A stretch of DNA of 35,686 bases from Kipferlia bialata (lineage: Eukaryota): the NCBI GenBank assembly GCA_003568945.1, contig BDIP01000056.1, forward strand, positions 1-35,686, read 5' to 3'. A model generated the notes under the pieces. It was given only the letters and a program-made list of their open reading frames with translations, had not been told where the DNA came from and searched no databases. This document shows positions 1,096-29,445 of this stretch, one piece after another. How positions within the stretch are numbered: position 1 is the first letter of the stretch; each line of letters opens with the position of its first letter. Both the position numbers and the translations under genes were made by a program.

Positions 1096-1173
1096 TCACT
1101 GTGTCACTAGGAATGAGCTGGCAGGGGCGCTGGCCTCATCCTCTAGTGGCCTAGAGTGAGATATATATGTATT

Positions 1174-1208
<35 letters not shown>

Positions 1209-2102
1209 GTACTGGCCTCATCCTCGAGTGGCCTGGGAGTGAGATGAGTACATTTATGTATACAGAGAGAGAGAGAGGGAGACAATACCTTCTCCCTGCC
1301 CTCCCTCTGTGCCGCACTGACACAAGAGAGAACAAGGAGCGGATTAAGTAGATCTAGATAGATATGCCTACACATATATGTACCTGCTCCCTACTCTCCC
1401 TCTGTGCCGCACTGACACAAGAGACCAGTGATAATATATACACTAATGTATGATGTATATACATACCTCCTCCCTGTCCTGCCTCTGCCCCACTCTGACA
1501 CTGAAACATCGGAGTCCTCAACAGTGCCTGGGGAGTGAGAAATAATAGGCATTGGCCATTTTGAACAGAAGACTATTGTTCTACTCCTCTACTTGTCATG
1601 GTAAGTAAACTTAGACAACTGATATACTAGCATTAGTAATACTAATGCAATGATGCTTTCTTTACCTGCGGATGTCTCTTCCACTGCCCCCTCCACCACA
1701 CTGAGGAATGCACCCTCGAGACCAGATATATATATATATATATTCATATATTAACAAATACATATATGTATATAGATACACCCACCTGCTGATGTCATCT
1801 CTACGGCTCCTTCCACCACGTTGAGGAAGGCACCCTCGAGGGATGAGAACACAAGGCCATACTCATGGGCTATGCCCTCACTCTTGAGGGCTATTAGCTC
1901 CTAGGGGATGAGTACAGTGTAAGTATGTGTATATAGATATGAATACAAATATATCTATATNNNNNNNNNNNNNNNNNNNNNNNNNNNNNNNNNNNNNATA
2001 CAAATATATCTATATATCTATATGCAGTGTAATAGTAGAGAGGACAAGGCCACACTCATGGGCTATGCCCTCAGTCTTAAGGGCTATTAACTCCTGTGGT
2101 TA

Positions 2103-2141
<39 letters not shown>

Positions 2142-5100
2142 TTTCTCATAAAATCACATATTATCACGTACCCTCAGCACCTCTGAGACTGTGTGGCCAT
2201 ATATATTGTGCTATATATACATATGTATATAGAGGGGGTATCTATTATATACACGTACCCTCAGGACCTCTGAGACTGTGTGCCCATAGGCCAGGGTGAA
2301 CTGAGAGACAATGCGGCATGGGGTGAGAACAGAGGACTATACATGTATAGATACATACAGATAAGCTACTGAAATAGAACGAAACCATATATATATGCCG
2401 TAGTGAATGGGAGACAATGCGGCCTAAAGTAAGCACAGAAGTGTAGTTCTATACATATATGCTATAGAGGTATGTACTGTGTGGGGTCATATATCATACC
2501 TGACACCGGTGTCTGCTGTAACCAACTATATATATATGGGGGCATACACTAATGTATTATATACCATATCATACTATACCATACTATCCTAATGTATCCT
2601 ATCCCATACCTGACACCGGGGTCTGCTGGGATGCCGTGTTGACAATGTGGCTGTTGACCAGGAAGAGTCTGTCAGTTAGAGGCCAGAGACTTGGGACCCA
2701 GCTCTGATATGAAAACAGAGACCATTTTACCTGTTTTGCACTTGAGTCCCATTGCTGGGTGCGTGTTTGACCGATATCAGATACCCACTGCCATATCTGG
2801 CCTTGAGGTGGAACCTCGATCCAATGGCCTGCATCTGGCCTACAGTCAGTATCGCGTAAGAATTGTGTCTTCGTGTGAATAAGAGGATCCTATATTATTA
2901 TATATAGGCCAATGGCCAATGGCCTGCATCTGGGCCTGGAAGTCAGTATCGCGTAAGATATTGGATTTAAAAGAGGACACTGAATCAGTATCGCGTGAGA
3001 TTTATGTTCGTTGTGGGAATTAGAACCTCTCACCTGCCACCATAACGCCTATCTTCTGGGACAGGGCATCGGCCTCCTCCATCTGGGGGTTAGGCATGGG
3101 TATACACATGTTTACAATATAACTCATATTAGTATACATATATAGAGAGACACGGACAATAGAGTAAGAGAATTGGAGAGTGATAGACGGGGCATCAGCC
3201 TCCTCCATCTGGATGTTAGGTGTTAGTGTACATACGTATACATAGTATCGATTATACTGATGGTCAATATACACAATCCCCTCACGTTGTGTGTTGTCAG
3301 CAGCAGCACCATGTGCTCCTTGGCCTTGTCGATGGTCTACTCTCTCTCTCTCTCTACATATATAGTNNNNNNNNNNNNNNNNNNNNNNNNNNNNNNNNNN
3401 NNNNNNNNNNNNNNNNNNNNNNNNNNNNNNNNNNNNNNNNNNNNNNNNNNNNNNNNNNNNNNNNNNNNNNNNNNNNNNNNNNNNNNNNNNNNNNNNNNNN
3501 NNNNNNNNNNNNNNNNNNNNNNNNNNNNNNNNNNNNNNNNNNNNNNNNNNNNNNNNNNNNNNNNNNNNNNNNNNNNNNNNNNNNNNNNNNNNNNNNNNNN
3601 NNNNNNNNNNNNNNNNNNNNNNNNNNNNNNNNNNNNNNNNNNNNNNNNNNNNNNNNNNNNNNNNNNNNNNNNNNNNNNNNNNNNNNNNNNNNNNNNNNNN
3701 NNNNNNNNNNNNNNNNNNNNNNNNNNNNNNNNNNNNNNNNNNNNNNNNNNNNNNNNNNNNNNNNNNNNNNNNNNNNNNNNNNNNNNNNNNNNNNNNNNNN
3801 NNNNNNNNNNNNNNNNNNNNNNNNNNNNNNNNNNNNNNNNNNNNNNNNNNNNNNNNNNNNNNNNNNNNNNNNNNNNNNNNNNNNNNNNNNNNNNNNNNNN
3901 NNNNNNNNNNNNNNNNNNNNNNNNNNNNNNNNNNNNNNNNNNNNNNNNNNNNNNNNNNNNNNNNNNNNNNNNNNNNNNNNNNNNNNNNNNNNNNNNNNNN
4001 NNNNNNNNNNNNNNNNNNNNNNNNNNNNNNNNNNNNNNNNNNNNNNNNNNNNNNNNNNNNNNNNNNNNNNNNNNNNNNNNNNNNNNNNNNNNNNNNNNNN
4101 NNNNNNNNNNNNNNNNNNNNNNNNNNNNNNNNNNNNNNNNNNNNNNNNNNNNNNNNNNNNNNNNNNNNNNNNNNNNNNNNNNNNNNNNNNNNNNNNNNNN
4201 NNNNNNNNNNNNNNNNNNNNNNNNNNNNNNNNNNNNNNNNNNNNNNNNNNNNNNNNNNNTTGTGTGTAGTGAGTAATAGCACCCTGTGCTCCTTGGCCTT
4301 GTCGATGGTCTACTATATATATATATATACATATAGTATATATATAGTATATACATTGTCTATACTACTCACATTGTGAGTAGTCAACAGTAGCACCCTG
4401 TGCTCCTTGGCCTTGTCGATGGTCTTCCACACACTCCTCCTGGTCATGGGGTCTAGACCGCTGGGGTGTAAGAGAATGACTCCATTGTCTGTATGTGGGA
4501 ACACACATTGTAATGAATACTCATAACATGAACTCACGTTGATGGCTCGTCCAGTATCAGCACCGAAGGTGACCCTATCATGGCTATGCCCAGAGATAGC
4601 CTAAGGGGTAAACTTACATTACTAACTGTGATATGTATACCTATACTGACTATTTCTTCGCAATACAATGATACAGAAGTATATCTATACCTCCTACGCA
4701 TGCCCCCACTGAGTGCGTCTGCCCTTCTGTGTATGGCACACTATATATATATACATGCACACTTACATATATATACTTACACTGAGAGAATTCTTACCGT
4801 CTACGCATCCCTCCACTGAGTGCATCAGCTCTTCTGTCTATGGCCGGACTGAGGTCCAGGAACTTGACCAGACCCTCAACCACAGAGTGCTCCTGATAGA
4901 TGAGAGTATATATAGAACATATATAGAATACATATTATATATGTACTATGTATACAATATATGATCCTATATATATATATTAATATGGAGGAACTTGACC
5001 AGACCCTCCACCACAGAGTGCTCCTATGATAAGAGTACATTTAGAACATATCGTACCGTATACACATATATTGTCTCACAATGTATATGTATGTAATACT

Positions 5101-8100
5101 AATATATTATTACATATACATATATAAGTATAGCTCTTTACACACCATCTTCCGCTGGACCCCTCTGATTCTGCAGAACAGGGAGAAGTGCTGGCGGACA
5201 GTGAGGGAGGGGAAGTAGCTGGGGGGTGAGATGAGGGTCAATGTCAGTATATACAATGAGAGAGACTATACATGAAGAGAGAGAGACACTATTGCACGTA
5301 CACGTCGTGCTGTGGGCAGAGGCCTAGGTGTTTCTGCACACTCCCAGGCCGTCTGGCCACATTGTCACCTGACACAAAGGCTGTGCCTCTGATATGTGAG
5401 ATATAGGAACATATAGAGTATACTCATAGTATTCTGAATATATTTATATATATATGACATCGTATGGCCAGTGGCCATTGGCCACACTGTCACCACTTTG
5501 TGACTTGTACGACCGACACCGCGAAAGATGGATATATCAATTGGGTAGTGTCTGTACCTGGTGGGTGCCGTGAGACCAGTGACTGCTCTGATTGTAGTAG
5601 TCTTGCCTAGGGTGAGGACAAAGGAATATCAACTATCACTGTACACCAAAGCACTCGACACTATGAGAGTATTCAAGGATAGGCCCTAACCTGCTCCGTT
5701 TGGCCCTAACAGTGCCATTGCCGTGTTGTTCTCCACATAGAAGCAGACGTCTCTGACAGCCACAAACCTGGGTTCAGAGGTAGATAATGATCAGCTTATA
5801 CCCTTCCAAAGACTCTCACTGTAACGGAAACACACGTGTAAGTAGTATACAGCAACGGAAAGCATATCAAGGACCTATACCTTGGCGGGTAGTACTTCTG
5901 CAGGTTGGTCACTATCAGCGGGTGCTGGTCTCTGGTGCACAGGGCAACCTCCTTCCTGGGGGTGAGGTTAGTATTGGTTATGGGTATCATACACTGATCA
6001 TACATGTATAGGTATATATATGTGTGTGTGTCTGGTGCACAGGGAGACAGCCTTCCTGGGGTATCAGAGGGGAATATCAGTGATAGTCTATCACTATCTC
6101 TAAACAGCGGTTATCCCTGAGTATCCTAACCTCTCCTCCAACACATCTGTGTCAACAATGCCATACTATATATATATATGTGTATATGTATATGTATATA
6201 TGTACATATACTATGCCTGTACCTCTCCTCCATCANNNNNNNNNNNNTGTATATATGTACATATACTATGCCTGTACCTCTCCTCCATCACATCTGTGTC
6301 AACAATGCAATACTATACATATATCTATATATATATAAGTGTACATATACCTTGCCTGTACCTCTCCTCCATCACATCTCCCTCTAAATATGTATATACG
6401 AGTACATATGTACTCATATATTTACATATATATATATATGAGTGTGTGTGTGTATATATCCCTCACCTCTCTTCCATCACATCTGTGTCCACTTCGTCGT
6501 GTCTCATGACGGTGTCCCTCACATTGTGTCTCCGAGGACGTCTGCAGGGCACTAGTGTCAGACACACATATATATATATATATAGTTAGATGGAATAGAA
6601 CTTAGTCCTCAATTAATAGTATATATATAGAAAGCCTCAGAGAGAGAGAGAGATGCATCAGGAACACTTCTAGTAAATCAGTACCTGGGAGCAGTGGGAT
6701 GGTATGTCATGAATGACTATACTAATATATACATATCGCAGCAGATGGTATGTATATACACACGTATGTATTGGTTTAGATAGTGTTCTGTCGAGTGTAC
6801 CTGGCAGCAGTGGGATGGACAGCCTGATGGCCCTCCCTCTACGGACACCAGTCTTGTCAGCAACACTGGTAGTCACCTAGGTATGAGTAGGGGAGAAGAT
6901 TGTTTGCTGAAAGAGTGCGTCAAAGGAACAATGGATTGTCAGCATAGACCAAAGAGTACCTCTGTGCCCGGGTCAACAGTAGGCAGAGAGGGGACTGGTG
7001 CACCGTACTCAGCTGGAAGCAGGTCGGCAAGCAGTGAGTGGCACAATAGTGATAAGCAACAAGTATAAGTGAATACATGACAGAAGTGTCCATGGTGTGA
7101 CAGATCCAATACCTATGGGTGGCAGGTGGCCCTGAAGAGTAGGGACCTCTAGTACGCCGTCATCTGGAGGTTAGAAGGACCCAAGTACGCAGATTTACAT
7201 ACCACTACTTGTGCTGCACTACGATATATAGATTGACACTTGTTAATACAAAATACATAGTATACATAGTATATGTGTAGAGTACCTTGGTTCTCGTTGG
7301 GCTGTCTGGCCTCTCTCTCCCCCTCTGTCTCTACCCCCTGCACTGACCCCTCCTGGTCCCTCACACTGCTCATCATGGCCAGTGTAAGACCTTCTGAGAC
7401 TGACTGGGGTGGGTATATATACTATACTACCTGTCTCATTGGATGAACACAATGATTAGGTACGAAATAGAGAGTAACAGGAGATTCTTTGAAAAGACAC
7501 AGACTACCTGGTTGACTATAAATGTGATGCTTGTCACAGACAATAGAGACTATAGTACCTGGTTGACTATGAATGTGGGTGTGGCTGACTCAGCGTGTGA
7601 GTCCCCAGTTGCAGTAACATAGGTGACATCAGTCGTGTCCACACTCTCACTCTCCCGCTGCCCACTTGCACTGTCTCGCTCTGTCTCACTCTCGACAGAG
7701 GCTGTGGGAAGTGGCGTAGCGGCAAGGCCTTAGCGTGAGTGCAAGAGTATAGTGTGTGGAGTGGTTACGGTGTATTCACTAATGCAGGAAATTCTCTGTA
7801 TACAGGATGCCTGGTAAGACTGGTACACCACTAGACTACACTTGGTCTCTCTTACCTGCGAACTCCTCCCTCTTCAATGCGGAATTGTCTACCTGGGGGT
7901 GAGACAACACACTGTCATAGAACAGAGCATAAGTGAAACATCAGGCAGAGAGAATAGCCATGCCTTCCCCCCTCTGACCCTATAGTACCTATAGTAATAT
8001 ACTATATATATACTGTAGTAGTAGAGTGTACATATATATAGCTACTTATGTATACAGTCATACCTGCCCTCTGACTGCCATGGCTGTAACACTGGATATA

Positions 8101-11100
8101 GAAGGAGAGACATTTACTACATAGCTATTGTATATATTAGTATATATATATTACTATATAGCCATACCTGCCCCCCTCTGACCGCCATGGCTGTGGGCAG
8201 CATGGACGTCTCCTCAATACTACATGTAGTCTTTAGTAACATGGCAGTATATATATATATATACATCAATAAGAGTAGGTTACACACCTGCCCCCCTCTG
8301 ACTGCCATGGCTGTAGGTAGCATCGATGTCTCCTCATCCTCAGTCTCTACTGGGTTGGGACTTAGCTGCCGTACTAGGGTAAGAAGAGACAGAGACATAA
8401 ATACAGCAGTATCAATGTATGGATATGGGCACACGTACCCGCGTCACCTTCGATAGACATATACAAGCAAAGACAGAAGTGTATACACGTACCCCCATCC
8501 ACGAGTTGAGCACTCCTCACCACCCTCTCTCTCTCTCTCTCATGTGCATAGTCGGTGTCAGCTGGTGACTCCACCATGGCACTAGGACCTGCTGTGTCCT
8601 GGATCACGGCATAGGGCGCTGTCACTATACCCTCTACCCCTATAGTGAGCGTTAGAGTATATATATAGACATATACATTTAGACATTCTGGATCACGGCA
8701 TAGAGCTCAGTCACTAGCGTCTCTGCATCTTCACTTGCAATAAGGACACATCTAGTGTGCTCAAAAGCAATAACAAGTCATAATACACATATACACCGAG
8801 TGTACCTTCTCCCTTCCCTGCCTTCCTCAACCTAAACAGGGGAGAGACAGCAAACCGAACCATCCGGAAGAGGACATCAAGGAGACTAATGATGGGGTAG
8901 AAGACAGAGCGACGGACACCGAGGGTACCCTCGTGATGAGAATATATGAATCCCACGCAGTATAGATACAGAGGGTATATTTGCGGTTGTATTACTGAAA
9001 AATTAGTGTCCCACACACACCTTCTTTGGAATGACTGCATCAAAGTACACGGCAAGCACAAGGTACAGGGCTAAGGTGAGAGAAGACACAATAACGGCAA
9101 GTAATACGGAAAGAGCCCAAAGGATGCAAGACAGTAGTTTTACCCGATACTCACTTCAAACCTTGACTGCCTCTCCTAGCAGTGTGGTATGCTAGTATTG
9201 TACTAGGACTATGTAGTATACACAATATAGATTCTTTGTAATCTAGAATATGTGCCACGTACCTCCGACCTTGACTGCCTCCTCTAAGAGTGGCATCAGG
9301 GGTGACACAAGGAGGGTATCCACATTGTACCCCCTAAAGGTCATCTTGCCAACCAGAGCAACACAGAGCTGGAAATGAGAGAAGGTCAAATAGCGTTGAT
9401 ATATATCACCGTCGTGTAGATAGTACTTAGCAGAGTTCTCACAGCGAATATACCATCATCGTGTAGAAAACGTACCATTGGGGGCACGTATGCGTGCCAG
9501 AGAGTGACAGGGTCATAGACACTGAAGCATATGACAGTAACAATGGCTGTGCAGCTGTAGAAGGCGTTCAGAAGGACACTGGAGACCTGGGGTTAGGGGA
9601 AGACATTACTCACTATATGGTGGGACCAAGGGGAGTATGAGAGGGAGGGTGAGGTACAAGTATGATAAGAGTGTAAAGAGAGGTATATACCTTGGTGTTG
9701 GGTAGGAATGCCGAGGCCAGCATCGAGAAGCACACTATGTTGAAGTAGAGGCTGCCCAGCACGATGGCGAGGGCTCCAAACGACATTCTACGCGGTTAGA
9801 GGGCAATATAGATTTCTATGCGACATTGCTGATATCCAATACCTCGTCATGGCGTCGATACTGAATATGTGGCCAGTCACATAGAGAGCCACGGTCATTG
9901 CGCCACCTGAGGGTGAGACAAACGAGTGACCAATAGCATCCATAGTTTAGAAGCAGAATAGTTGAAAGAGCCACTGAGAGGTGTATGATTCATCACTCAC
10001 ATAAGAGCATGTCGTATGCGGAATTGATTAGAATTACCATTAGAATCAGAGTAAATCCTTCCTTACTATATATATACTACCACTCACATAGTAACATGTC
10101 GTGTGCCAGCAGTACTACATATCTACATACAAAACATATATACTATATGAATTCTCACTTACATAAGAGCATGTCGTATGCCAGGAGTGTCAGCCAGTAC
10201 AGGTGGGCTGGCATCCCCTTGAGCTGCAGGAGGCTGAACAGCTTCAACTCTCTCTCCATGACTTAACGTGAGAAAGAGGGACAGATACACTAAAGTATTG
10301 AACGACATTTGGACAGCTTCAACTCTATCTCAATGACTGGGGTCAAAAGAAGGGACAGATACATACTCTCCACAGCCTCTAAATAGTTGATGATGAGAAT
10401 CTACGCGATACCTGGCTGGAATGCGAGTACAGGCAGCACGCTGAGTATGGCTATGGACACAAAGATGACAGCTGTGAATAGGGCCATGGTCTCTACGAGT
10501 ACACCAAAGGAGTAGTCCCTGGTGTATTGGAAGGGCTGGAAGGAGGCCGTGATGCCTATGGTTAGGAGGTATATATATACAGGTAAGAAATGAGTATTGT
10601 ACATTAGTACATTAGTATACAGAGGCGTGTAGTAGAAGGGTGGGAAGGAGGCAGTAATGCCTGGGGTCAACACACTGGGATATATGTTATAGGAGGCATG
10701 CCAACAGACATATATATATGTATGTATTGAACATACTACTGTACCTGCCGCATCTCGTGTCTGTCCAGTGGCTGACCGAAGGGCTGCACCGCTCAGCTGG
10801 GGGGTGAGATAACGCATAGACAGAAAGGTAGAAGATTTATGGCAAGGAAATGGTAATCTGGAGTTGTGGACACCCCACTGGGCAGAGAGAGTTCTTCATT
10901 GACAAAGATATACCATGCAATTGTCATCCTATACCTTCGCGTGTATGTCATTGACCAGTGACACGTGGGGAGGCAGGGAGAACGGGTTGGAGAACAGACC
11001 TGAGCCTCTGGGGGTGAACGCAAACACGACGACATATGCAATACATTGATAAGTGGGAATCATGATCTCTCCCTTAAGAGTAGCATCAATGAATACCTTG

Positions 11101-13649
11101 GGGCAGCAGGTGGTGCAGGGATTGCCTCATAGGACTTGGCAAAGTAGGCCTCGGGACTGCCTTCCTGAGAGGTCAGACTATGCTACTATACACGTGACGT
11201 ATATGAATATATGTATACATATATATACATATGCAAAGCGTCCTTCTGTTCGTACCTTGATGCCCGTCCAACTCATTCTGAGCTTGAGTCTCATGTAGGG
11301 TAGCACACCTAGGGTAAGAGATGCACAATCACACTCTCGTAACCTCTCCATGAAGGAACAAACACATTGTACTACACTATTGTACATATTGTTCCCATAG
11401 TACATGGAGTATCTATCCATACCCACCTGTCATTGGCGGCATGAATGTCTGCAGGGTTGGCTACACATCCGTATATACTTCTAGTGTACATGATATACAT
11501 ATATATGTGTGAATATATATCCACACCCGTCATGGGCGGCATGAATGTCTGCAGTGTGGGCTGCTGGACTGTGCTCTCAGGGGGGTCATTGAGGTACAGG
11601 GTCATCAGGGGTACACGTGCATAGAGTGTACGGAGAGGGGGGAGGATTGCCTGAAGTAAGGAGCATGGAGAGAGTATCTAAATAGAGGTCACTATCTGTA
11701 TTGGAAGGAGAGATTATACTGTAGAAGATGGTAGTAAGGACCCACCTCTGGCTCCTCGATGTAGTTGGCAGCGGAGGACGCCCAGGTGTACCCTCTCCTA
11801 CGATTAGCACTGGCACAATAGAGACTGTCTTTATATACATGTGGCAAAGTAATATACCTCAGCTGGTACATGATGTAGTTCTCAAATGTCCATGCATCAT
11901 AAGTATGTACTATACAATATATAATATCGAAAGAGTATATACTATATACATAACTGTGGTATCACAACCATATACAATATCCTATATACTACATTCTATA
12001 CATATACCATACCTCAGCTGGTACATGATGTAGTTCTCAAATGTCCATGCATCGTGGTACTGGGGGTGGTCACGGCCTGAGGGTCAGAGGGGTCAAGACT
12101 AAGATCATATGTATCGTGACAGTATTCTCAGAGAAGACCCACTGGTCCACTTCAACATATGTAGTGATTGTAGTGGTACTGGGGGTCGTCACGGCCTGAG
12201 GGTGGGAGGGGTCAGTGGAAACAGCATACATACATAGTATATGTATCACTGGGTGCTCTCCTATTTGAAGAGAGTGAATAGTTTGGGAATATCTTACTGA
12301 GTTCCTACTAGACACTGTATATATAGTATACTTATCTATATATATATACCTACTATTGTGGCAGCTGTGTCTATGTAGTGGTCGTATGTGCTGTTGTTAG
12401 CGTATCTCTCAGCAATGGCAGCCGGGTACTGAGCAACCAGGCCCTTGACACCTGGTGTTGATGAATATGACACTGTAGCTATAGTGATAGTGATGGTAAG
12501 TGCATATGACACTGTAGATATAGTGATAGTGATAGTGATGGTAAGTCCATACGATAGTGATTATGATACACTAGGTATATAGTAATTAATGAATCTCAAG
12601 GGGTATGATACACAATAGGTATACAATAATGTATGAATCTCTTGGGGTATGATAAACAGTATATGATGTGTACCTGGCAGGTATGGGTCTGGCAGAGCAG
12701 CGCTCGTGTAGATGTTGGAGACCTCTCCCTGGAGGTGAGATACATTGGCTGTAGAATACTACAAGGCATGATCTATATATACACTTTCAGGGACAGAATT
12801 ACCTGCAGTAGTGTATACTCCATTGCATTCGGCACGTGTTCTCTCTCATTGGAGTATGTGGGAGCCAGCTATTGTCAGATGTATGCATATCAAACACAAT
12901 CCACCGGGTCGAATAGACTTGTCAATAGGAGCGAGAGTACCTAATATATAAATTCAATGTTACATTGAATCTATGTAAGAGGTTAAACACAGTTGCTAAT
13001 GAGAGGGAGAGAGTACCTGCTTTATGACCAGGGACTCAGACGGTGGCAGAGACCCGTGGTGGGACCTGATGTCAGTGAAGAGACCACAATTTCCTATACA
13101 ATACTGTCCTACAGAAAACACTATTCCCAGTAATGAATGTACTATAGCGGATGATACTATAACACTGATACCTCGTGTCAATGGGTACCCCATTAATGTC
13201 CTGAGGAAGGAGAGCATTCTGGGGTTAGAGACATTTCCGTATATTGGATACCTACAGCAATGAAGATACTCTCACAAGTCTGGTGGATGAATCAAACATG
13301 TAGACTACACTATATGTATACCTCAGCCTCGACCAGCTGTGCCAGTTCCACCCATGGGTCATAAACATCCCTCTCCTCCTGTGTCATGATGGAGACATCA
13401 GACATCTGGGGTCAGTAAGTAAGTATACTGCACACATATATATATATATAGATATATATATGTCAACGTACATCAGGGCCACACCAGACATCTGGTAGGA
13501 GACAGTTAATACATATACACTGAGTAGAAGTCACACAGTGCAGTACAACCAAGATAGTATTGAAAGACAATTATGTGCAAGAGATGTTGGTTATAGAACC
13601 CTGTCGAGAGGGTACCGTGTGTGTATATACTATATATAGTGTATTCTCC

Positions 13650-13685
<36 letters not shown>

Positions 13686-16600
13686 GTATACCTTGTCGAG
13701 TGGGTACCGTGTGTTGTCAAACACAGTCATCGAGACTGGGACACCGTATCTCTTCATACTGGGGTGAGATTGATGTGGATTACAATCTACTGGTATAATA
13801 CTATCTAGTAAAGAATCTAGAGTAGTACTCAGTTGTTTAGAGATGTATACCAGAGTTATACTCACCTTGGGGAGATGTATTATGTATATATATCAGATAG
13901 ACCCACCTAGGTCTCTCTATCGATTACCAATAGTGAATACATATCAAATAGATTGACCCACCTAGGGGAGTTGTCACCAAAGACAGTGGCAGCTTGGTAC
14001 TGGACATTACCTGACTTGTCAGACACAGAGTAAGCAACGCGATACAGTAGGGAGATGCACACTATAGTAGGCACGTGGGAGTATGGTGGTATAGTATGGT
14101 GGTATAGTATGGTGACCCTCACCTTGGTACTGGTCTAGCAGGGTGCAGACATAGGGGTTGCCCAACATGTCATAGCCTGTGCAGGGCTCTGTTGGGTACT
14201 GGAGTCAGTTATAGAGAGCATACTCACTGTCACATACTGTATAGTAGGGCTTACATACCGTTGTATCTGATACATAGTCACTGAGCATGCACAGTTGACA
14301 GGCAGCCTCGGCCTCCTCTATGTAGCCAGCTGGGGTTATTCATTGACACTATAACAAGTATACAGAGAGAGGGAGTCTCTCATACCTACAGGCTCATCAA
14401 CGCTATCCCCAGTTTCACATACATTTTGACATATCATATATATGTGTCTCCCACCTACATACTCATCCACTAAGCCCACCATGAATGGGAACAAATGTGC
14501 CACCATGAGGTATGAGAACATGAAGCAGAGGAAGGGCAGGACAAAGATGCCAAGGAAGCCACAACGACGAGAGCTAAGAGTTAGAAAGAACTTCAAACTC
14601 AAAATAACTCCAAACTTAGAAGAACTTCAATCTTGGAAGTACTCTATACTTAGAAGAACTAACTTAGAAGAGGAAGAAGACTGTTAAGATCATATTCACT
14701 GTGAGTGTCAGTGATGATTACCTGTCCACTGCATACAGCTTGGACATCAGACCCCGTATGTATCTGGGTGTATTCAGTGGCGGGTTGAGCACATCTATCT
14801 GGGGGGTCAGTAGAGAAAGAGCAGGGTCTGCATGCAATGGTGACGACTCAACATTACCTTTGCCTCGCCTTGGGCGCGCTCTCTCTTCCTCCTCGCTCTC
14901 CTGGTGTCAGTGTAGTATTTATGAGTATTCAAACATGATACAGAATGAATGACTGAATATAGTAGATGCGTGTATGATACAGGGATTGACGCACCTACTC
15001 TCCCTCTGAGATATGGTACCCGTGTCAGTACCGTCACCTTCACCAACATAGCTGGGGTTCAGAGCGATTCACATCGGACACTAGAAATAGACTCGAATAG
15101 AGAAGATGTGGTATGCTAAGATTGTATGGGGTTATTGCATCTACCTGCCGGTCTCCGTCTCCTTTTGTGTAGGTGTAGCACCCACAGATGACCCTATCCA
15201 CTCCTCAGAACCCTCGCTGCCACCCCAGGCAAGCACCTCTCTCTGCAGTTAGGACACATACACGCATCGAGTAGTATACATGCTATTCATGACTAACTGG
15301 ATATTAAATTTGGTACCTTCTGTATGGCCCTCCTACTCTCATCTCCGCCCTCCTCTATGTGCATGTTGGCCAGTGATCTCTTATGTGATTCAGCCATGGC
15401 CCTAGAATTATTAGCTGCACGATACGTAAGACTACACGATAATTGGGGATATTGTATTATGAGTATTGAAGTTTACCTGTGGCCGACGTTGATGAACACC
15501 TCCTCCAGGCTGGTCTGGGTATGTCAGAGGGAGAGAGAGGGAAATGGGGCGAGAGAGGGGGAGAGAGGGAGGGGGAATTAGTGGAGAGCTTTCTAACTCA
15601 GGACGCCATATAGTAGGCCTAGTAGACAGAGAGTATGGGTACCTGGGTACACGATATGTCCTCTATGTACTCGAACCCCATCCCCTCTCTGGACTCTAGT
15701 ACACTGAGAAGATCAGGGAGCTTCGACTCTGTATCCTGACACGTCAGGCATAAGTAATGAGCAATCACACAACAGCCCACCGTCGGACAACACGTATATA
15801 GTAACGCAACGTATGAGTAGTAACCCCCACCTGACTGACACTGTATGTCAGGCTCTGCGCACTGTGGTCCAGGAGGGTCAGGGTGTGGGTGGGGGCCTGA
15901 GGTAAGTAGTGGAAGGAAGTAGTGAATAGAAGAGAAAAGTACTAGAATCAAGGTCTGGAATATGGTGTGCTTGGGGGCCTGAGGATATTAGTAGTATACT
16001 GAGAGAGACACATAAGGTTGGAAGCAATGAGAAGATCTTACCTCAGGGTCAGTTGCCAGTGCCTCAGTGAGAGTGCCTGGGGGGTGAGACAACTACAAGC
16101 CTATGACTCAATAGTTCAAGATATGTAGGAGAACATATGTGCTTATATGTCTGTGTATACTAGTGTATACAAGTATTCTAACCTCTGGCACCCTCCCCCT
16201 CCTCCTCCCCCACTGTGGGTGTACCACCCTCTGTGGTATCCATATACTCTATGGACATACTCTCACAGGTCCTGGGGTAAGTATACAACAGACTATACCT
16301 GCAGAAAGCCACTATGCCAAGTACATATATTCACGAAACACAAGTAGTGTGTAAACATGTATATATCAGTACCTTCTGACGGCACTGGCTATCACTGACG
16401 TGTGCGACGCAGAGTCAGCTACCACAGATATCACAAATCCAGTTCCGAACTTTGCCTTGGAGTAAGATTTAGATGTGAGACCAAAGACAGTACATACATA
16501 TGTCATAAAAGTGAAAGGTGAGACCCAAAGACAGGTACCCACTAATAAATAGACATACAATTACACACAAATACTATTCTTTGTTCTTCAGACTGTTGGC

Positions 16601-19600
16601 CCCACCTTGAGGTGCAGCACTGTGCCAAGAGCAGCAATCTGGCCCTGGAAGGTCAGAAGAGAAAGACATGTGTCAAAACGTACCTGAGCAGAGAGTGGAC
16701 TGCACTCCTGTGATGTACCTTGCTCATGATTGCCACCACATCCCCCAGCCTCTCAGCCTCTGGCATGTCATGGCTGGTCAGCATCACAGCGGGAGGGGGG
16801 GCCCACTTCCTAGGGGTTAGTACATATAAATATATGGTATCTTAGTAGTTAGACCCACTAGCGCAAGCGCGTAGTACTCTGGCTTATCGTGTAGCTTATA
16901 CCCGTACCTCCTGAGGTGTCCGTGTCTGCCGTATGTGGGCATCTGCTGCTTCTGTCCTGTGATGGCCTCCACTGCAGTCCACACAGTGTGTCTGGCAATG
17001 GGGTCTAGGCCTTAGGTTAGACTCTAAAATATACACGACATATATGTGGAGAGAGAGAGAGAGTACGAGGTTACAGAGTGTCTGGCAATGGGGTCAAGGC
17101 CTGGGGTGAAAACACTGATTGCTCTCTGACCATAAGCAATTCGTACATATTCATACCCCTCTACATACCTGTGGATGGCTCGTCCAGGAGATTATACTAT
17201 ACACATATATACATAATATCCACTGTAAATCTATCAATACTATATAAATAGTTACCTATACCTGTTGCGGGCTCGTCCAGGATGACCAGTACATATATAT
17301 ATATAGTAGAACTCACATACGTATATAAATATATATATTCATATACATATACACATACCCGTAGAGGGCTCGTCCAGTATGACCAGCTTGGGACACCCGC
17401 TAAAGGCCATGGCTATGCAGAGACGCCTCAGCATACCACCAGAGAACCTAAAGGTAAGATGGGAAACCCTATACATACATACCGGTACGTGTAGTATATA
17501 TGTGAGCATATAGAGGAATATGATGTATGATGTACACGTACTGTCCAGCTGGCTTGTTCTTGACATCGAGTAGGTCCACATAGCCCAGTAGCTCATGGGC
17601 CATGGCCTTGATGCACCTCTTGGGTATGCCTGGAGTGAGGGTGTCAACACATCAGAAACTGCTATTTCATGTTATGATATATATGTGGCATACCCCTAAA
17701 TCGTACATACTCACATGTACTGCATGGGAATATATACACATATATGTATTATTACCATAAACTCATATATATATATATGACATACTAACCCTTGATCATG
17801 CAGACTATCCACATGTGCTGGATGGGTGACAGGGAGGGCCAGATGGTGGTGTTGCCCTGGGGGCATATGCCTAGGGTGCGCCTGGTTGTATAAGAGAGAA
17901 TATCATGAGGTATTAACAATTCACACACTTATGGTCACTATCTATAATAGTACACATACACATCTTATCTGCAGAGGGTGCTATATATATATATATATAT
18001 ATAGTATACCTGATCTGCAGCGGGTGCTTGTTTAGTGCGTGGCCACTGATCCATGCCTTGCCCAGTCTAGAGGAGACGGGGTTGTCAGGCTTCAGAGTGC
18101 CTGGAGTCAGTTGGATACTGTAGAACACTCCTATATATATGAGAACAGCACCCGCTACTCAAGAGTGGACATATGGCGAGATACTCACCTGTGAGCATGT
18201 CTATTGTGGTACTCTTCCCTGCCCCATTGTGACCCAGGAGACAGAAGGTCTGGCCCTGCTTGATCCTGGGATGAGATGCACAATATAGACCAATCATATA
18301 CTTACGTATATAGTATTAAGATAGTGTATATATATGACATATGTATCTAGTGTGTAGGTCTGACCCTGCTTGATCCTGAGGGGTAAGATAGATCTATATA
18401 TAACAATTGTATACAATAGAGAAGTGTGCAGGAGTATATATACATGACAATAGTATCTGAAGTGAAGGTGAGCCCTCCTTGATCCTAAAAGATGAGATAT
18501 ATAGAGATATATAACGGAATAGCAACTCATTTGGATGGAACGACTACAGGACTGTAAGAACTCGGTATAATATCAAAGCTCAGAGCGAAGCACATAATTG
18601 GTACACGAACTCACTCCACCAGGAGTAGACATCTGCTCTGACGATATGTATATGGAATCGTACCTCAGAGTGACTCCATTCACCGCCTTGTTGTACTCTC
18701 TCTTCCCAGACTGGAAGGTCTTATCCAGAGAGTGGGCAACAACCTATCCAGTGAGATACCGGTATTAGTAAAGTGGTATGTGAGCAATCGCTACAATCTG
18801 TAAACTACAATACATATAGTGAGTGTTCACTGTACACTCACCACTGCCTTGTCGAGAGCGGGGTGGGTCAGGACAGACACCATCTCCTGTCTCACATCTG
18901 GGGTGACATGTGTGTATATATATATATACTATTAGTATATATACTCAATGCTATATATATAGGTAGGAATACTAGTATGTGACTCGGGGCAGACACCATC
19001 TCCTGCCTCACATCTGGTGGGTGAGATATATCAATATTAATACATATATATATATAGCCATATATACAGATATGTATATACACAGCCATACTATATATAG
19101 ATATGAATACATATGTAAATAGATGTGGGGGTGAAGGTAGACACCATCTCCTGCCCCACATCTGGGGTCAGACCTATACATAAAATGACATAGGGGGGAT
19201 ATAGTGAAAGTGTGGGTGTGTTAAAGTAGCTCTCTGTGGCGGGTGTAAGATGTACCTGAGTCCAGAGGCTCTAGTCTGTCAGCCGTCCCTGCTGCCTCAT
19301 TGTAGGGGAGAGGGACACGCTTGTGCTTGTCTGCACAATGAGACAAGGAGAGAGATAATTAAGGACATACCCAAAGTCTATAGTGTGTATCAGTATATGA
19401 TAGATGCATAGTCCAATATAGTACTATGATAGCTCAAATGCGTGAGACAAAGATCAGTCATTGCATGATAGTGTTCGTGTATATAGTGCTATCATAGTTC
19501 TGACACTGCATATTGTGCTTGTCTGTATTGAGACAAAGATCAGAAATTGCAGTGGCCATACCCAAGAGGTGTATACAAATATGATATATCTATTGTCCAT

Positions 19601-22600
19601 GACAGTACTCTAATACTTCAAATGCGTACCTCTCTTCTCCGCAGGCACAGTCTCAGACCAGTAACTCCTGGGAGGTCAGGATAGGGACGAAGACTACAGC
19701 CAGAAAGTACCTTCCAGAATAGTAATCATTTACACTGGATACAGATTGAGTATAGTACATGTACCTCTAAAGCCATCATATACACTCGGTATACTATATT
19801 GTGTGTTTCGTCTACACATATAGAGTAAAGAGAGTGTACCTCTTCAGAAGCTGGAAGGGGTTGCGTCCTGGACTGCCGTTGGAAGGCATCCACTCCCCTG
19901 GGGGTAAGAGAACATTGGATATACTACTATAGCCAAACAGCATATCAGTATCATCATTGGGTAAGAGCACAATGGAGATAATACACTAAAGCATTGTGTC
20001 CATATCATACATGGAGTGCAGTGTAAACTATACACTTCCACCCATTACTGTAATACAACGATAGTTAACATAAAGACTATACATGCTACATTACCTACCA
20101 CCCATGTGACAAGCAGCCACACGACCGAGTTGACCAGCATATTGATGAGGGCACTTGAGACAGGAGGGGTGTTGTACACACAACCTGGAGTCGGACGAAT
20201 CAATTAATGACGTTATTGCCTTGTACCATCTCTTTGTAGGATATATATGCTACTAGACCAGAATACCAAATCCCAAACACTTGTGGGTCCTCATCTGTCA
20301 CTATACTATAGCCACTACTCTACCTGTGTATCTCAGCATCATGAATACACACTGATCATATTGTAGTAGTATACCTGTTCCCAGGCACTTGTACCCATCG
20401 TACTGGTACAGGTCAGACCCAAAGAGCATCGAAAAGGTGAATCTAGGGTCAGAGAGAGAGATGTCTATACCACAGCGAACATTGACATTAACAACCAACA
20501 ATATATAGATTTATATACCTCTCTGTGGGTGGCACCAGTATGGTCTCGTATGTCTTCATGTCTATCCTCAGGGTGGGGAACACTACTATGTACACAGCCC
20601 TGAGGGTAAGACTTATACTAATACATATCAATGACAATGAAACGATGAGTATATAGTATCAGCCAACTGGGTGTTTCACAAAGTGAAAGTATATCAGTGA
20701 GAATACAATGGGTATGTGATTGTAGAAAGATACGTACGATAGTGCGACTGCAAACGGCACGAAGGGGAAGACGTTGAACAGGACAGTCTGGAGACCAGAG
20801 GGTATGAAGGAAGGGTCGTAGAAGAGGAGGTCTCCGTACATGTGACCTATCATAGGGCACATAATGCCTAGGGTGAGATGCATAGATAGAGAGACACACC
20901 ATCATAGCGAGAGGGTGAACACTTACCGAATATATAGATTCAAGTATATCCAGAAAGCATGGAAATTGTCAGACTTAAATATGGGTAATAATTCAAACTG
21001 AGACTGTGCTGGATACACACATAGGAGACATGCAATCATGGCCCTTATGATACAAATGAATACATATACACTGACTACCAATACCTATGATGGTTACCAA
21101 CAAGCATGCAATCATGGCCCCTATGATGCCAGATGTGACACACCCTACTAACAGACCGATGGAAGTGGCAGCGAAACCAAAGATGAAGAAGATCGTGAAG
21201 GTCACCTCTAAGAGTAAGTTTAGAGAGGGAGAGAGAGAGTATGGGAAACAAAAGACGAAAAAGATGGTGAAGGCGACTTCTTAAGGTTAGCCACATAAGA
21301 GAAGGAGTGAAAGAGACAACAACTCTGTAAGAAGAGAGGGACAAGCATAGAGAGCTAAGAGTCTGAGAAGAAAGTGAGAGAGCCTCGCAAGGTACGCACC
21401 GACATCTACGTATCCAAATATGTCGCAGTCTGGTATGGAGTGGAGGAGGTACAGGAAGGGCACAAGGGTGAGTGTGTACACAATCATCTGGACAAGTGAC
21501 CAGCTGAGCCAGTACAGTGGGTCCCTAGAGTGAGAAGACAACTCGATATACATATATAGATTATATATACATAGAAAGAGAGAGAGTAGCAGCTCAGCCA
21601 GTAGAGGGGGTCTCTGAGTGTCAGTGTCAGTCCACTGCCGCGTAGATACTTAGTCCCAGAAGATGTGTTGCGTTTCGTTTACCTGACCCCCATCACTCTG
21701 AGTGCTGTGAGCTTCCCCTGTCTCTTCTCCACCACTGCACTCTGGGCCACCATGAAGATCTGAGAGTTAGAAATACATATACATATTCACTTACAAACAC
21801 ATCAAGCCATTCACGTGAAGATCTAAGAGTGAGACAAGAAGTCATACACAGAACGAACACTACATCGACATCTAGCCGGTGAGACTGGTTTCCACAATGC
21901 ATGTCACTCCTCCATCACAGTCACAAAGAGCGAGGGAAGAGGCTGAGAGGAAATGCAGTAGTACCTGATAGGCGACGACCATCGTAAGCAGGACTGCACT
22001 GGTCAGGGGATCTGGAGTGTGAGAGAGAAACAACCGGGAACATACCAATAAATATAGGTATAGAGAGGGAGAGGGTATATACGGTATATACAGTATATAT
22101 ACAGTATATATAGTTGGTTATTACGATCCCATACCTGGCACCAAGAATGTGTCTGCCACACCTCTAGAGGGGTAACCCTTCACCTAGGGTGTTAGAATAT
22201 ACTATAGAGATAGCATCGGGTATGACAGACATACGATGAGGGATTCCCATTCGTCTGGTGTATTAGACATCCCATAGGGAAAGGGGTACATGACATCGTT
22301 GATGAGTATATGCTTGAAGTCTACATGATATACATGATATATACGTACCAGCGGGTCAAATATCGTCCCAGACTGCTCATATACAATGGCCTTCTCAATA
22401 GCATGCTGTGCATAGAGAGTGAAGCCTGACCACTGGACCTGGGATATGAGTTACATATATTATATATATATAATAGAAAATAGTATTACATATACATTAT
22501 GACATATTATGTAGTGGAATGGACAATAAGTTCAAATAAAACACAAAGACTACTGGCCCTAGGGGTACTAGTGATACATCATTGAGACAATAGAATCGCT

Positions 22601-25600
22601 ATACCACCCACCGTCCCATACTCCTCTGGCCAGTAAATCTAGCTCATATTACAGATACTAATACTATCCCCTCCTGCATATATACATATGTCTATAGAGT
22701 GCATAACCCACCGTCCCATACTCCTCTGCCAGTGGGTCAATATTTCAAAGACACACATATAGATATGAGCACATGTGTATGACTATCGATAGGCATGTAT
22801 AGATTTACGTAATGGTACACACTCACCGTGCCGTACTCCTCTGCCAGTGGATCTAGGCCATCCTGCATGTACAGGTAGGCATCGTCTGGGGGTACGGAGG
22901 GAGTACAGATAATTTTGTAAGCTAGTTCCTATTTATCACACAGAGGAAGAGATTATAGAAGGAATGCCATCCTGCATGGATACGTAGACATCGTCTGGGG
23001 GTAAAGAGGGAGGATGAATAATATATCAATTCCAATCACTGAGATAGTGATGCTCAAGTATGAGAGGAGCTAGTGGAAGAGAGTACAAGGAGGGTAACGA
23101 AATAGTGTTGATACACTCAGAGGAAGCAGAAGAGATGATATGCTCCGATACCTAGCACCGTCTGGTTGTAGTGTATGGTGTACTCAACGTTGGAGGGGAG
23201 GGTCTCAAGGTCAGTGAGACCAGCGAAGGAGACACCTGGGGTTAGAGAATATGAGTGTACTGTCTTCTACATATTACTCTAGAGTATGTCAAACATATAC
23301 ACATATATATGTAGTGGGCGAAGGAGACACCTGGGGGGTTATGGTGCCATAACACGAAAACATACGAGACAAATGAATAGGGAAACTAGTAGGTAACTGG
23401 TAACTCACCATATGACCCCTGGGTTATTGAAGACATGACATCATACCGTCAACATCCCCACTAATAGTACATGCAGTATATGGTAGAGTCTATATAGACC
23501 ACCTAGCCATACCTAGCCATATGACGCCTGGGTTGTTGTTTGCGTATCTGTCCAGCTCCCATCCAGAGTCAAACACCATGATGGACTCGTCCTCCCACCC
23601 AAAGTCGGCTAGAGTAAGGAATGTATATATATACTAATACTCAATAGGGTAATACTAATTACACACTATACTATTGTATGAACACCATGATGGACTCGTC
23701 CTCCCAAAGTCGGCTAGAGTAAGAGGAATATAGAGGTATACATATGTACCACTATAAGAGAATTCCAATCTAATACTAAATACACACTACTGTATGGACA
23801 CCATGATGGACTCATCCTCCCACCCAAAGTCAGCTAGAGTAAGAGACAAATATCCGAATACTCACAAGGGTAATACTTAATACACACTGGTCTACAATGG
23901 AATCATCCTCCCAATTTGGGTTACACAGGGAGAGATTAATAACATGCAGGGTCAGCGATGTATACAGTGAGGATAGTAGAAGACACATATGTACCCCACC
24001 TATGACTGCGTCCATTGTCCTGTTGACTGCCAGGTTGATAGCAGGGGCAAATACATATATACATATTCCTATATATATAAATGTGTGTGTGTGTGTGTGT
24101 GTGTGTGTAGACTATACACCAGTCTATAACTGTCTCCGTACCTATCACTGCATCCATTGTTCTGTTGACTGCCAGGTTGTTAGCAGGGGCAAAGGCTAGG
24201 GACACACACCCCGAGTCAGGCTGGGGTACACCCGGACCATGCCTAGAGGGTAAGGCATACATATATATATATATATATATATAGGGATAGAGAGAGAGAG
24301 ACACCCAGAGTCCGGCTGGGGGACACCCGGGCCATACCTGGGTAAGACAACATATGCATATAAGAATAGAGAGAGAGAGTGAAAGAGAGAGACACACACC
24401 CCGAGTCGGGCTGGGGGACGCCCGGGCCATATCTGGATAAGACACTACATACATATATAGATAGGGAGAGTGAGTGAACGAGAGAGAGAGAGACAGCCCG
24501 AGTCCGGCTGGGGGACACCCGGGCCATACCTAGTGGGTAAGGTATACGCACACACATATATATGAATGTATGCATATGTATATATATAGGGAGAGAGAGA
24601 GAGAGAGCGGAGTCAGGCTGGGGGACACCCGGGCCATACCTAGTGGGTAAGGTATACGCACACATATATATATGAATGTATGCATATGTATATATATAGG
24701 GAGAGAGAGAGAGAGAGCAGAGTCAGGCTGGGGGACACCTGGGCCATAACTGGGTTATATGGATGAATAAAGGGTGACGAGAGTATATGCCGAGAGTACC
24801 CACCCGTCACTGCCGTCAAAGACTGCACAGGAGGGGACAGGGGGGACGGCCTTGGCCTAGTGTTAGTACAGATATGTATATATATGTGTATATGTATATA
24901 TATAGATAGATATAGAGAGAGAGAAAGGAAGAGAAGTGGGGATAGCGTTGGTCTCTTGATGTCAAACTATATATAATACATGTAGAACGAGGGAGACAAA
25001 GAGAGTATAGGCCAGTATCGGTAAAGACACGTCGCGTGGTTTTTAAGGAGAGGTTGCACAACGCTGGAACTACACGTAAATACATATATATAGATATATC
25101 ACTCACCACTGGGTGGTTGTTTGGATCCAACGTGGACAATACTATGTTAGGCCACTGCCACAGGACTAGGACAATGGCCATGGGGACTAGGAACCTGGGG
25201 TAAGAGAGATAGATATACCTGTCACTAGGTAGACATGTATATTAATGTGTATATACACACAATTATACGTCAAGTACTAGGGCAATGGCCATGGGGACGA
25301 AATACCTGTATATATAGACATAGTGTATTATATTACTATATATTATTATATATATTTTTTTATATATACACATTGTAGATTAGTAATAATCTATATACTA
25401 GGACAGTGACTGTGGGGAGGAGATACCTCTGGTAAGAGCAAGCGATATACATATAGGTAGAGGTGACATATACCTAGTCACAAACAGCATCGTAGACTCC
25501 TTGACAGCTGACAGGAAATGCAGCATGTACTAATATATATATACAACCATACTATATGTATAGTATATATACTAATATACATATATAGTAGTACAGGACT

Positions 25601-25942
25601 ACACATATACTAATAAGTATAGACCTTGTTATGAACAGCATTGTGGACTCCTTGACAGCTGACAGGAAGTGCAGCATGGTGAGGCCACAGAACTGCTCAT
25701 AGAAGAAGCCTAGGATGAGATAATAACAGAAATGAAGCACTAGGATAATGCAAAGACATACTGAGAGGAGTGGGGGGGGGGGGGCTCACAAGATACAGGG
25801 TGGGAGCAACACATACGCACATACATATACAATGTATGATACACACTAGGCCTATGCGTAAATGTAAGACCGTATCTCATCTGTGTAACTAACCTCTGGG
25901 CCTGATGGCATCAGTAGCCTTCTTGACCACAGAGCGCGGCAT
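1096..25942 (-). CDS. ABCA: Full-size ABCA-subfamily ABC transporter (TMD1-NBD1-TMD2-NBD2), >70 short exons
   Basis: ATG at 25942 (MPRSVVKKATDAIRPR), TGA at 1098-1096. Phase-consistent GT-AG exons give VVEKRQGKLTALRVMGV, LLGHNGAGKSTT, FSGGMLRRL, ILDEPSTGLDP, TSHDMPEAERLGD, HLKAKFGTG, TSLEEVF, MERELKLFSLLQLKGM, DTDVMEER, LLGPNGAGKTTT, LSGGMRRRL, TTHNMEEADAL, HLKARYGSGY and SLEGAFL. Not every exon in 11-14 kb was resolved. Confidence 0.93.
1961..1997. other. Assembly gap (N)
   Basis: Run of n flanked by duplicated atacaaatatatctatat. Confidence 1.
2731..5767 (-). other. ABCA nucleotide-binding domain 2 exons
   Basis: Walker A GPNGA|GKTTT split by an intron (~5691/5606), LGLCPQHD (~5310), LSGGMRRR (exon 4892-4798), ILDEPST (~4540), TTHN|MEEADAL (4373/3083). 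Confidence 0.93.
3367..4259. other. Assembly gap (N) inside an ABCA intron
   Basis: 893 n, flanked on both sides by echoes of the TIDKAKEH...TTHN exon end. Confidence 1.
6129..6490 (-). repeat. Four intronic copies of the exon end 'TDVMEER|GT' plus the live exon end (small N gap 6236-6247)
   Basis: + strand motif acctctcctccatcacatct at ~6129, 6220, 6276 and 6360; the live copy ends at ~6467. Confidence 0.9.
16372..18743 (-). other. ABCA nucleotide-binding domain 1 exons
   Basis: Walker A GHNGAGKSTT (exon 18264-18189), Q-loop LGICPQ (exon from 17881), signature/Walker B FSGGMLRRLCIAMAFSGCPKLVILDEPSTG (17447-17360), H-loop LTSHDM (~16780). Confidence 0.93.
23513..23925 (-). repeat. Three intronic copies of acceptor + exon start 'ADFGWEDESIMV' upstream of the live exon
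   Basis: Copies at ~23681-23720 (4-nt deletion), ~23798-23840 and ~23895-23925 (degenerate). The adjacent intron sequence (taatactaa..tacacact) is repeated as well. Confidence 0.85.
24142..24755 (-). repeat. Five intronic copies of acceptor + exon start 'YGPGVPQPDS' upstream of live exon 24242-24142
   Basis: + strand motif gagtc(a/c/g)ggctggggg(a)cacc(c/t)gggccata at ~24308, 24403, 24499, 24610 and 24720, ~100-110 nt apart, separated by (AG)n/(AT)n tracts. Confidence 0.92.
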
Positions 25943-28575: not shown

Positions 28576-28806
28576 TACCTTTCAAGCTGACAGTCAAGTT
28601 GACAGTCAAGTTGACTGAGTCGAATACTGAGAAACAGTGCCCTGGGACACGTTTAATCGTTGGAGGTCAATTAGATATATCGAGTATTAATTACGACTGA
28701 GATGTGTCATAGAACACTTCAGACTCCTGTCTTTCATCGGCAAGCTAGTTACGGTAAACGGTGTAAACCCTTTGTGCGCCGTACTATATATACTATATAA
28801 CCAAAC

Positions 28807-29173
28807 AAGCTGTCCTGTGAGTTCAACATCCCAGTCATAGTCACAAACCAGGTACTGTCATTCAAGTGTATTTTAGGGTAAGACTCTTGTCACAAGAGTA
28901 CCTATAGTTGTTAGATACTTGACATTCAGGTCACAGAGAATACGACTACACAGGTTTTAACGTTGAAGACATGAAGAAGAAGCCTACTGGGGGTATGTTG
29001 TCGGACACTCAGTCACTACACGGGTGAACCTCCGCAAAGGCCCTCCCAACAACATTAGCTCAAGCCGCTGCTGCTTTCTCGTCCACTCCCCAGACCAGCC
29101 AGAAGATGCAGTTGGCTTCCAGTTATCAGACGGGGGTGTCACTGACTACGATGATATAGTCGTCATCCACTAG
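28807..29173 (+). pseudogene. Partial diverged copy of the recombinase 3' end (half of exon 5, intron, exon 6) with frameshifts
   Basis: KLSCEFNIPVIVTNQ|gt at 28807-28851, acceptor at 28929, then frameshifted KKPTGG.VVGHSVTTRVNLRKG...HSPDQPE...LSDGGVTDYDD..H* (TAG 29171-29173). Confidence 0.88.
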
Positions 29174-29445
29174 AGGACGTGTTTACAGACTCATTCAAAG
29201 TCTCTAGGCCAATCCTGTGTGTCGAGTTATTGTCGACGGTGACTTGCAGGCATCTAAGTTGCATGATGCTACTTGAGTCTGATTACACATAGATGATGAA
29301 TGTATTACCTACTATTGTTACACATATAGCCTGCTTTGTAACAATAGAATAGTGCAATGTTGGGTATACAGTTTATACAGTGCATATTGAGCAGAGAGCC
29401 ACTTTCTTGCATAGTCCACCTTATATTGTACGTCGCTATCGACCA

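Follow-up and report, generated by a model that had tools for sequence, protein, structure and literature searches.

How does an intron come to hold a copy of the end of the neighbouring exon that differs from that exon almost only at synonymous sites? The question is raised by exon 83 of an ABC transporter gene in Kipferlia bialata, which has such a partial copy, here called an echo, on either side. The window analysed was an entire contig of 35,686 nt, and two of its proteins, P0004 (RecA-like) and P0006 (ABCA), bear that species name in the database. A sequence-only reading of the window had proposed that the downstream echo diverged while it was still coding, as a different allele, a paralogue or an earlier version of the exon.

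Exon 83 and its host gene

The live exon carries the second ABC signature motif, and its 3' echo corresponds to exon bases 49-95. The alignment reported in the sequence-only reading is correct: live positions 4844-4798 and echo positions 4737-4691 form a gap-free 47-nt pairing that contains 8 differences, 7 of them synonymous (the last in the codon split by the intron) and 1 a replacement (D to H). The accompanying premise, that a neutrally decaying duplicate gathers mostly replacements, was too loose, because the live exon gathers silent changes as well and the proper null for this exon is 38% synonymous; the silent bias itself stands against that null (P = 0.006 for at least 7 of 8). The 5' echo, covering exon bases 1-35 at 5023-4989, is likewise real, with one synonymous difference, its AG kept and the upstream intron flank homologous too, but the description of the two echoes as roughly tiling was generous, since the 13 exon bases 36-48 lie in neither. 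These two echoes are known from the assembly; the read evidence discussed below covers 8545-13400 and 6248-16200 of the same gene. Alignment of all exons confirmed that echoes are general across the gene and are not special to the ABC signature motif.

The host gene was modelled by hand, and the model shares 2380 identical aligned residues with P0006. The annotation differs from it by omitting exon 89 and by giving later starts to exons 46, 53, 88 and 90; the later start of exon 53 is backed by RNA. Among the RNA matches listed, all 14 joints in 8545-13400 agree with introns of the model. To count as ABCA, a protein was required to be a full-length transporter containing two membrane regions as well as two ATPase domains that bear signature motifs; the 92-exon reading frame has two Walker A and signature regions, with a Pfam ABC_tran match on one ATPase exon (2.5e-07). 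Exon 89 (2317-2259, minus strand) has AT in place of AG at its acceptor, and its 5' echo at 2423 retains AG; this exon may be dead, may use a non-canonical site or may reflect an assembly error.

Table 1. Positions in the window of the ABCA gene, selected echoes and matches of a second locus
Feature	Position	Strand	Remarks
ABCA transporter gene	1096..25942	-	hand-built model: 92 exons, 2438 aa, 0 internal stops
Annotated protein P0006 (GIQ79794.1)			2406 aa; database name 'ABC transporter A, ABCA'
Exon 83, live, second ABC signature motif	4798..4892	-	present in P0006
3' echo of exon 83 (exon bases 49-95)	4691..4737	-	own GT donor after it; 107 nt from live copy
5' echo of exon 83 (exon bases 1-35)	4989..5023	-	own AG acceptor before it; 131 nt from live copy
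AT-rich filler, live donor to 3' echo	4738..4797	-	60 nt
AT-rich filler, 5' echo to live acceptor	4893..4988	-	96 nt
Exon 5, array of five 5' echoes	24293..24749	-	changes among the five: 7 four-fold, 1 non-degenerate
Exon 54 with 5' echo (22/23 identical) and 3' echo (41/41 identical)	11858..12195	-	echoes abut exactly in exon coordinates; RNA skips both
Exon 90 with 5' and 3' echoes	1666..2093	-	tiling within 4 nt; differences: 11 synonymous, 6 replacement
Exon 61 start and its 5' echo (10660-10627)	10522..10660	-	only here are paralogue letters compared with those of echo and live exon
Second-locus matches	10450-10575, 12366-12454, 13306-13400		some second-half exons only

Echoes throughout the gene and their silent-site bias

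Each ABCA exon was aligned to both neighbouring introns with codon-blind nucleotide scoring, at a threshold reached by 0.7% of 7656 non-adjacent pairs, which corresponds to about 1.3 pairs expected among the 182 adjacent ones. Sixty-two echoes at 36 of the 92 exons pass this threshold. They are 13-56 nt long and always come from one exon end: all 30 upstream echoes hold the exon start and begin at most 20 nt from it, with AG in place in 27, and all 32 downstream echoes hold the exon end and finish at most 6 nt from it, with GT in place in 25 and one echo running into N. There are 7 gap openings and 2 stops in the entire set. The nearest echo lies at a median distance of 105 nt (46-193), the filler measures 72 +/- 22 nt, and introns with an echo have a median length of 253 nt as against 103 nt without, or about 92 nt per echo. 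The echoes are thus direct, adjacent copies that include one splice site, as tandem duplication across an exon-intron junction would produce, and their regular geometry may be what remains of such duplications because selection removes events that break the exon or reach the next one. Comparison of the window with itself, which would have revealed a dispersed family of intron repeats such as introners or transposons, gave only local pairs and microsatellite matches.

The intron sequence next to the echoes behaves differently on the two sides. Flanks align above the 95% null for 15 of 30 upstream echoes but for 3 of 30 downstream ones, and the downstream flanks are barely alignable even beside the echo that is identical to its exon over 41 nt. 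Such a lack of resemblance between downstream filler and the intron that follows the echo would be expected of a donor with introns already diverged past alignability. Nine exons have echoes on both sides, and in four of these the echoes tile within 5 nt (p about 0.005, with the 5-nt cut-off picked after seeing the data); the tiling pairs look as if an old exon had been split and a new copy with its flanks inserted in the break. In the exon-5 array, copy 2 differs from copy 1 at 4 sites in 110 nt and equals copy 3 over its first 24 nt, and the copy at 24639 reads, to judge by its letters, as a putative crossover product of its two neighbours. The two 3' echoes of exon 85 begin at one exon base and differ at 6 sites, 5 of them degenerate; they are separated by an 893-nt run of N (3367-4259), a gap that may hide a longer array.

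The mismatches between echoes and live exons, 223 in 1917 aligned positions, are distributed over the three codon positions as 50, 38 and 135. This corresponds to dS of 0.38 and dN of 0.064 over the 62 echoes, with dN/dS of 0.17. A similar ratio, 0.18 (bootstrap over the 36 exons, 0.09-0.33), was obtained from the mismatches at four-fold degenerate sites (91 of 315) and at non-degenerate sites (79 of 1246). A value near the neutral expectation had been named in advance as fatal to the claim that the echoes diverged while still coding; computed on codon-blind pairs from this one gene, dN/dS was 0.17 as against 0.54-0.60 for simulated neutral decay, and the claim survived, the low ratio arguing that both versions were coding during the divergence.

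The bias is robust to the choice of echoes and sites. The ratio is 0.155 with one echo per exon side (n = 45) and 0.175 with exon 83 dropped; it stays within 0.155-0.175 when the ends are trimmed, and it is 0.19 without the doubtful exon 89 and the 5' echo of exon 90. All seven echo-bearing regions show the bias, more weakly in exons 61-68 (4/18 four-fold versus 8/84 non-degenerate) and 88-92 (16/54 versus 20/185), and it is kept in the acidic linker (9/41 versus 4/144). It is also seen when echoes of one exon are compared with each other (17/56 versus 19/217, p = 9e-5). The silent bias is solid for the ABCA gene, and it suggests that the echoes are likely to derive from gene versions that were themselves functional, probably strongly diverged alleles.

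Elsewhere on the contig, a Fe/Mn SOD gene (plus strand) has two 3' echoes, at 69-165 and 318-429, with well conserved intron flanks; read by eye, their 3 differences all fall in residue-changing codons. Echoes are consequently not limited to the ABCA gene, and, as far as these letters indicate, the silent bias may be. A RecA/Dmc1-like gene (plus strand) has its last two exons (28217-28576) duplicated about 590 nt downstream, at 28807-29161, with many residue changes, possibly as an alternative 3' end or a decaying copy. The remainder of the contig, 29400-35686, is richer in GC and poor in introns, with several long minus-strand open reading frames (e.g. 33476-32604, 290 aa) that we take to resemble kelch-type repeat proteins.

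Possible sources of the diverged copies

The account we favour, and to which we give an even chance, is that the echoes are short tandem duplications spanning a splice site that probably arose, or were later renewed, through unequal exchange with an already diverged coding copy, most likely another allele. The process would begin with a break in or near an exon that is repaired on the homologous chromosome; if the exons were similar enough to pair and the introns were not, entry or exit could occur about 100 nt out of register. The survivors would be those events whose second breakpoint fell inside the adjacent intron and left one exon intact, a filter that would account for the unit size of 46-193 nt and for the rule that starts are found upstream and ends downstream. 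Further unequal crossovers between an echo and a live exon on the two chromosomes could then build arrays and refresh echoes while keeping the old junction. The difference between an echo and the live exon would accordingly be the sum of the donor-recipient divergence (about 0.30 at silent sites) and later decay (at most about 0.07); the former value, four-fold minus non-degenerate divergence, gives the silent distance within the donor pool for either an allelic or a paralogous donor. When the simulated template was pre-diverged by 0.3, the ratio was 0.19 and both raw rates were matched. The echoes themselves are most likely functionless.

The repair genes of these organisms may be linked to such a process. 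The available part of one survey reports that metamonads are without Ku70, Ku80 and DNA-PKcs, and that fornicates have lost Rad51A and retain two Dmc1 paralogues (PMC8516963); in the accessible portion of another study, Dmc1 residues are tied to the stabilisation of mismatched joints (PMC6719624). Stabilisation of this kind by Dmc1 would permit exchange at 85-90% identity. The main weakness of an allelic donor is that it requires silent diversity of about 0.3, above the 0.20 given for Schizophyllum commune in the part of PMC4576712 available, and hybridisation of diverged lineages would ease this difficulty. The isolate, moreover, shows one allele, with no allelic variation across the 4856 nt that were compared with DNA reads.

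The evidence comes from one gene in one isolate. Extended to the genome, the proposal would be that K. bialata introns are an allele fossil record of a recombining, hyperdiverse population (silent diversity about 0.3, higher than any value met in the literature search), laid down by Dmc1-only, Ku-less repair that pairs exons and does not align introns; we hold this wider version tentatively, as somewhat less probable than not. If the allelic reading is true, a single genome would yield a record of recombination; on the wider version, sex, diversity and the growth of introns in this free-living fornicate would be measurable from one homozygous genome. A genome-wide pattern would offer a direct mechanism for intron length, at about 92 nt added per echo, and would bear on genetic exchange and diversity in this free-living Giardia relative, from which one sample was found.

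The same duplication mechanism could instead have drawn on a paralogous ABCA gene, present or since lost, through ectopic exchange. This is unlikely in our estimate. The reads contain a second locus that is transcribed, is 84-87% identical at exons 48, 53 and 61, has other letters at exon 56 too, and has a similar depth (309-419 versus 468). Its differences from the live gene (17/126, 14/89 and 14/95) fall mostly at third positions and are close to the live-echo difference, and the SOD echoes, which lack the silent bias, can be counted on the same side. One of the paralogue contigs at exon 61 has a loose end at 10523, which runs into an AT run 1 nt from our echo junction and is probably the paralogue's own exon-61 echo. 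However, the two paralogue contigs there do not have the letters of our echo, and at a variable site they share a third codon unlike that of both the live exon and the echo, which argues that the paralogue in the reads was not the donor of this echo. Coinciding junctions, combined with letters that follow the live exon of the same locus, suggest that exchange with live copies refreshes the echoes, and the exon-5 array points the same way. Over exons 62-67 no second locus was found (at 82% identity or more over 8707-10326, which includes exons 62 and 66 and four echoes), in a comparison whose filter may drop contigs; the paralogue exists and is transcribed, and with such a filter little can be concluded from its not being seen at other exons. 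The strong bias in the acidic linker also counts against a paralogue, because residue differences would be expected there at that distance.

Direct searches for the paralogue were also made. Protein searches with single exons scored 0 of 2 and 0 of 30 candidates, and a HMMER search returned the gene's own protein and P0007, in a database where a paralogue more than 50% identical would hide in the same cluster; P0007, an unnamed repeat protein, was judged a chance match. A metagenome scan (16 of 64 parts) found at least 80 loci at 30-39% identity, none of them Kipferlia-like among the matches listed. As to the sources first offered for exon 83, an allele or a paralogue can give the observed ratio, but an earlier exon version by itself, with the echo frozen and the live exon drifting, cannot bring it below about 0.5.

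A different possibility is that the echoes are still translated in minor isoforms, as alternative half-exons under present purifying selection. The low dN/dS, the mostly intact splice dinucleotides and the scarcity of gaps and stops would all follow, and the live site's score is equalled or exceeded by the echo's own in 10 of 30 acceptors and 9 of 31 donors. We nevertheless consider this improbable. Each echo has one splice site, an in-register GT/AG pair that would allow a half-exon swap is present in 4 of the 62, and if an echo were included as an additional exon, part of the ATPase signature would appear twice. RNA run X2, which is spliced, was compared over 8545-13400, a stretch that holds 9 of the 62 echoes and lies apart from those of exon 83. 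In that stretch one 1950-nt contig of depth 9 skips 7 of the 9, its joints removing echo and filler within one pre-existing intron, and the 7 exon pieces of this contig have no other letters among the matches listed. As regards the remaining two, the joint at the exon-56 echo is absent among the matches listed, and an unspliced contig (8612-8834, depth 6.1) reads through the intron between exons 68 and 69, where the exon-69 echo lies, an observation that could favour isoforms. No echo copy was seen in spliced RNA, within the bounds of a single depth-9 contig, 9 of 62 echoes and contigs that drop rare forms; nor, in the stretch tested, was a new intron of the AGGT type spliced between copies.

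Several features of the RNA stand on their own. X2 holds 0.37 of the words of 6248-16200, where exon interiors alone would give 0.22; the excess hints that introns are retained or that the run contains DNA. At exon 62 (10261, minus strand) the RNA uses a weak-looking acceptor, with an intact C-rich acceptor 75 nt upstream at its echo, and at exon 68 (8929, minus strand) a GAG acceptor is used. If it is genome-wide, the pattern would amount to a natural splicing experiment, in which splicing ignores intact decoy sites lying about 100 nt from the live one even though about one-third score no worse. For annotators it carries a warning, since echoes resemble coding exons.

The simplest explanation would be ordinary tandem duplication of the resident exon followed by neutral decay, with the silent bias arising from ascertainment or mutation bias. 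It would give the tandem geometry and the echoes that are identical to the live exon, such as the 3' echo of exon 54, and the SOD echoes do look neutral. For this ABCA gene it is contradicted, and we regard it as very improbable. Detection was codon-blind, and neutral simulations passed through the same detector at 12 settings (four ages, transition bias, AT bias) with 15 runs each gave mean ratios of 0.54-0.60 and a minimum of 0.37 in the 180 runs, compared with 0.18 observed. The four-fold excess is present for each of the four live bases and persists in the trimmed and subset ratios. Drift towards AT-rich intron composition is absent, with 29 GC-to-AT and 31 AT-to-GC changes at four-fold sites. 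Copies identical at birth and decaying neutrally would show a ratio of about 0.5 or more and alignable intron parts; the observed ratio is 0.18, and flanks align above the null for 3 of 30 downstream and 15 of 30 upstream echoes. By reasoning rather than simulation, the ratio would also stay at about 0.5 or higher under concerted evolution between echo and resident exon, under repeat-induced mutation or under selection to diverge, and error-prone copying with a selection filter would have to run at an implausible error rate. Copying from cDNA is unlikely, as intron sequence and not the next exon comes after the echoes.

That two haplotypes or paralogues were joined in tandem through microsatellites by the assembler is hardly credible, even though the assembly is a draft built from short reads and three N runs interrupt the window, one of them between the exon 85 echoes, because DNA run X1 contains 0.99 of the sampled words of 6248-16200 (17 echoes), a single X1 contig spans 8545-10971 with six echoes and no other letters, and RNA joints skip exactly the echo-bearing introns. 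The five main X1 contigs among the matches listed in 8545-13400 have a depth of 459-501 and no other letters; X1 is possibly the source of this DNA, and it excludes a mis-join there without representing a second isolate.

Comparison with known systems

Exchange with a diverged coding copy, as proposed here, has familiar relatives. When diverged coding copies exchange sequence by interlocus gene conversion or unequal crossing-over, many silent differences arrive together. Unlike the outcome of such conversion, the displaced half-exon in an echo survives next to its replacement as a relic within the intron and is not overwritten. Mutually exclusive duplicated exons resemble echoes in being tandem copies with low dN/dS. 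In that arrangement each copy is a whole exon with its own acceptor and donor, whereas the echoes are half-exons with one splice site and are skipped in the RNA contig. Short internal tandem duplications are tolerated, like the echoes, because splicing removes the extra copy. The echo unit differs in bringing a ready-made splice site and intron sequence, in that no new intron appeared in the stretch tested, and in that its copies were non-identical at the last exchange.

Tandem duplications that cross an exon-intron junction are already known, as described in the available parts of PMC4974935 and PMC3443670. The K. bialata genome has 124,912 introns according to the portion of its report available (PMC5874029), and the words 'duplicat', 'heterozyg' and 'ploid' are absent from the main text of that report; the accessible parts of PMC6679479 and PMC9933649 hold nothing on the echo pattern. 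In searches of open-access literature, no description of dense exon-end echoes with coding-type divergence turned up among the papers listed. In Daphnia pulex, new introns driven by DNA breaks are like the echoes in that repeated repair leaves direct repeats and lengthens introns; the repeats in the part of that study available are internal to newly gained introns, and exon-end copies with coding-type divergence are not among what it reports (PMC4202315). A parallel in geometry is the potato RdRp gene, where, in the available part of the account, the duplicated unit also crosses a splice site and leaves a former exon piece in an intron (PMC4974935). The potato case is a single event in which a new intron arose via a cryptic donor, whereas the echoes lengthen existing introns, accompany 36 of the 92 exons and owe most of their divergence from the live exon to silent sites. 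The echoes are a real, gene-wide feature of this ABCA gene, and what appears to be new in them is not the junction-crossing duplication but its density and the coding-type divergence of the copies.
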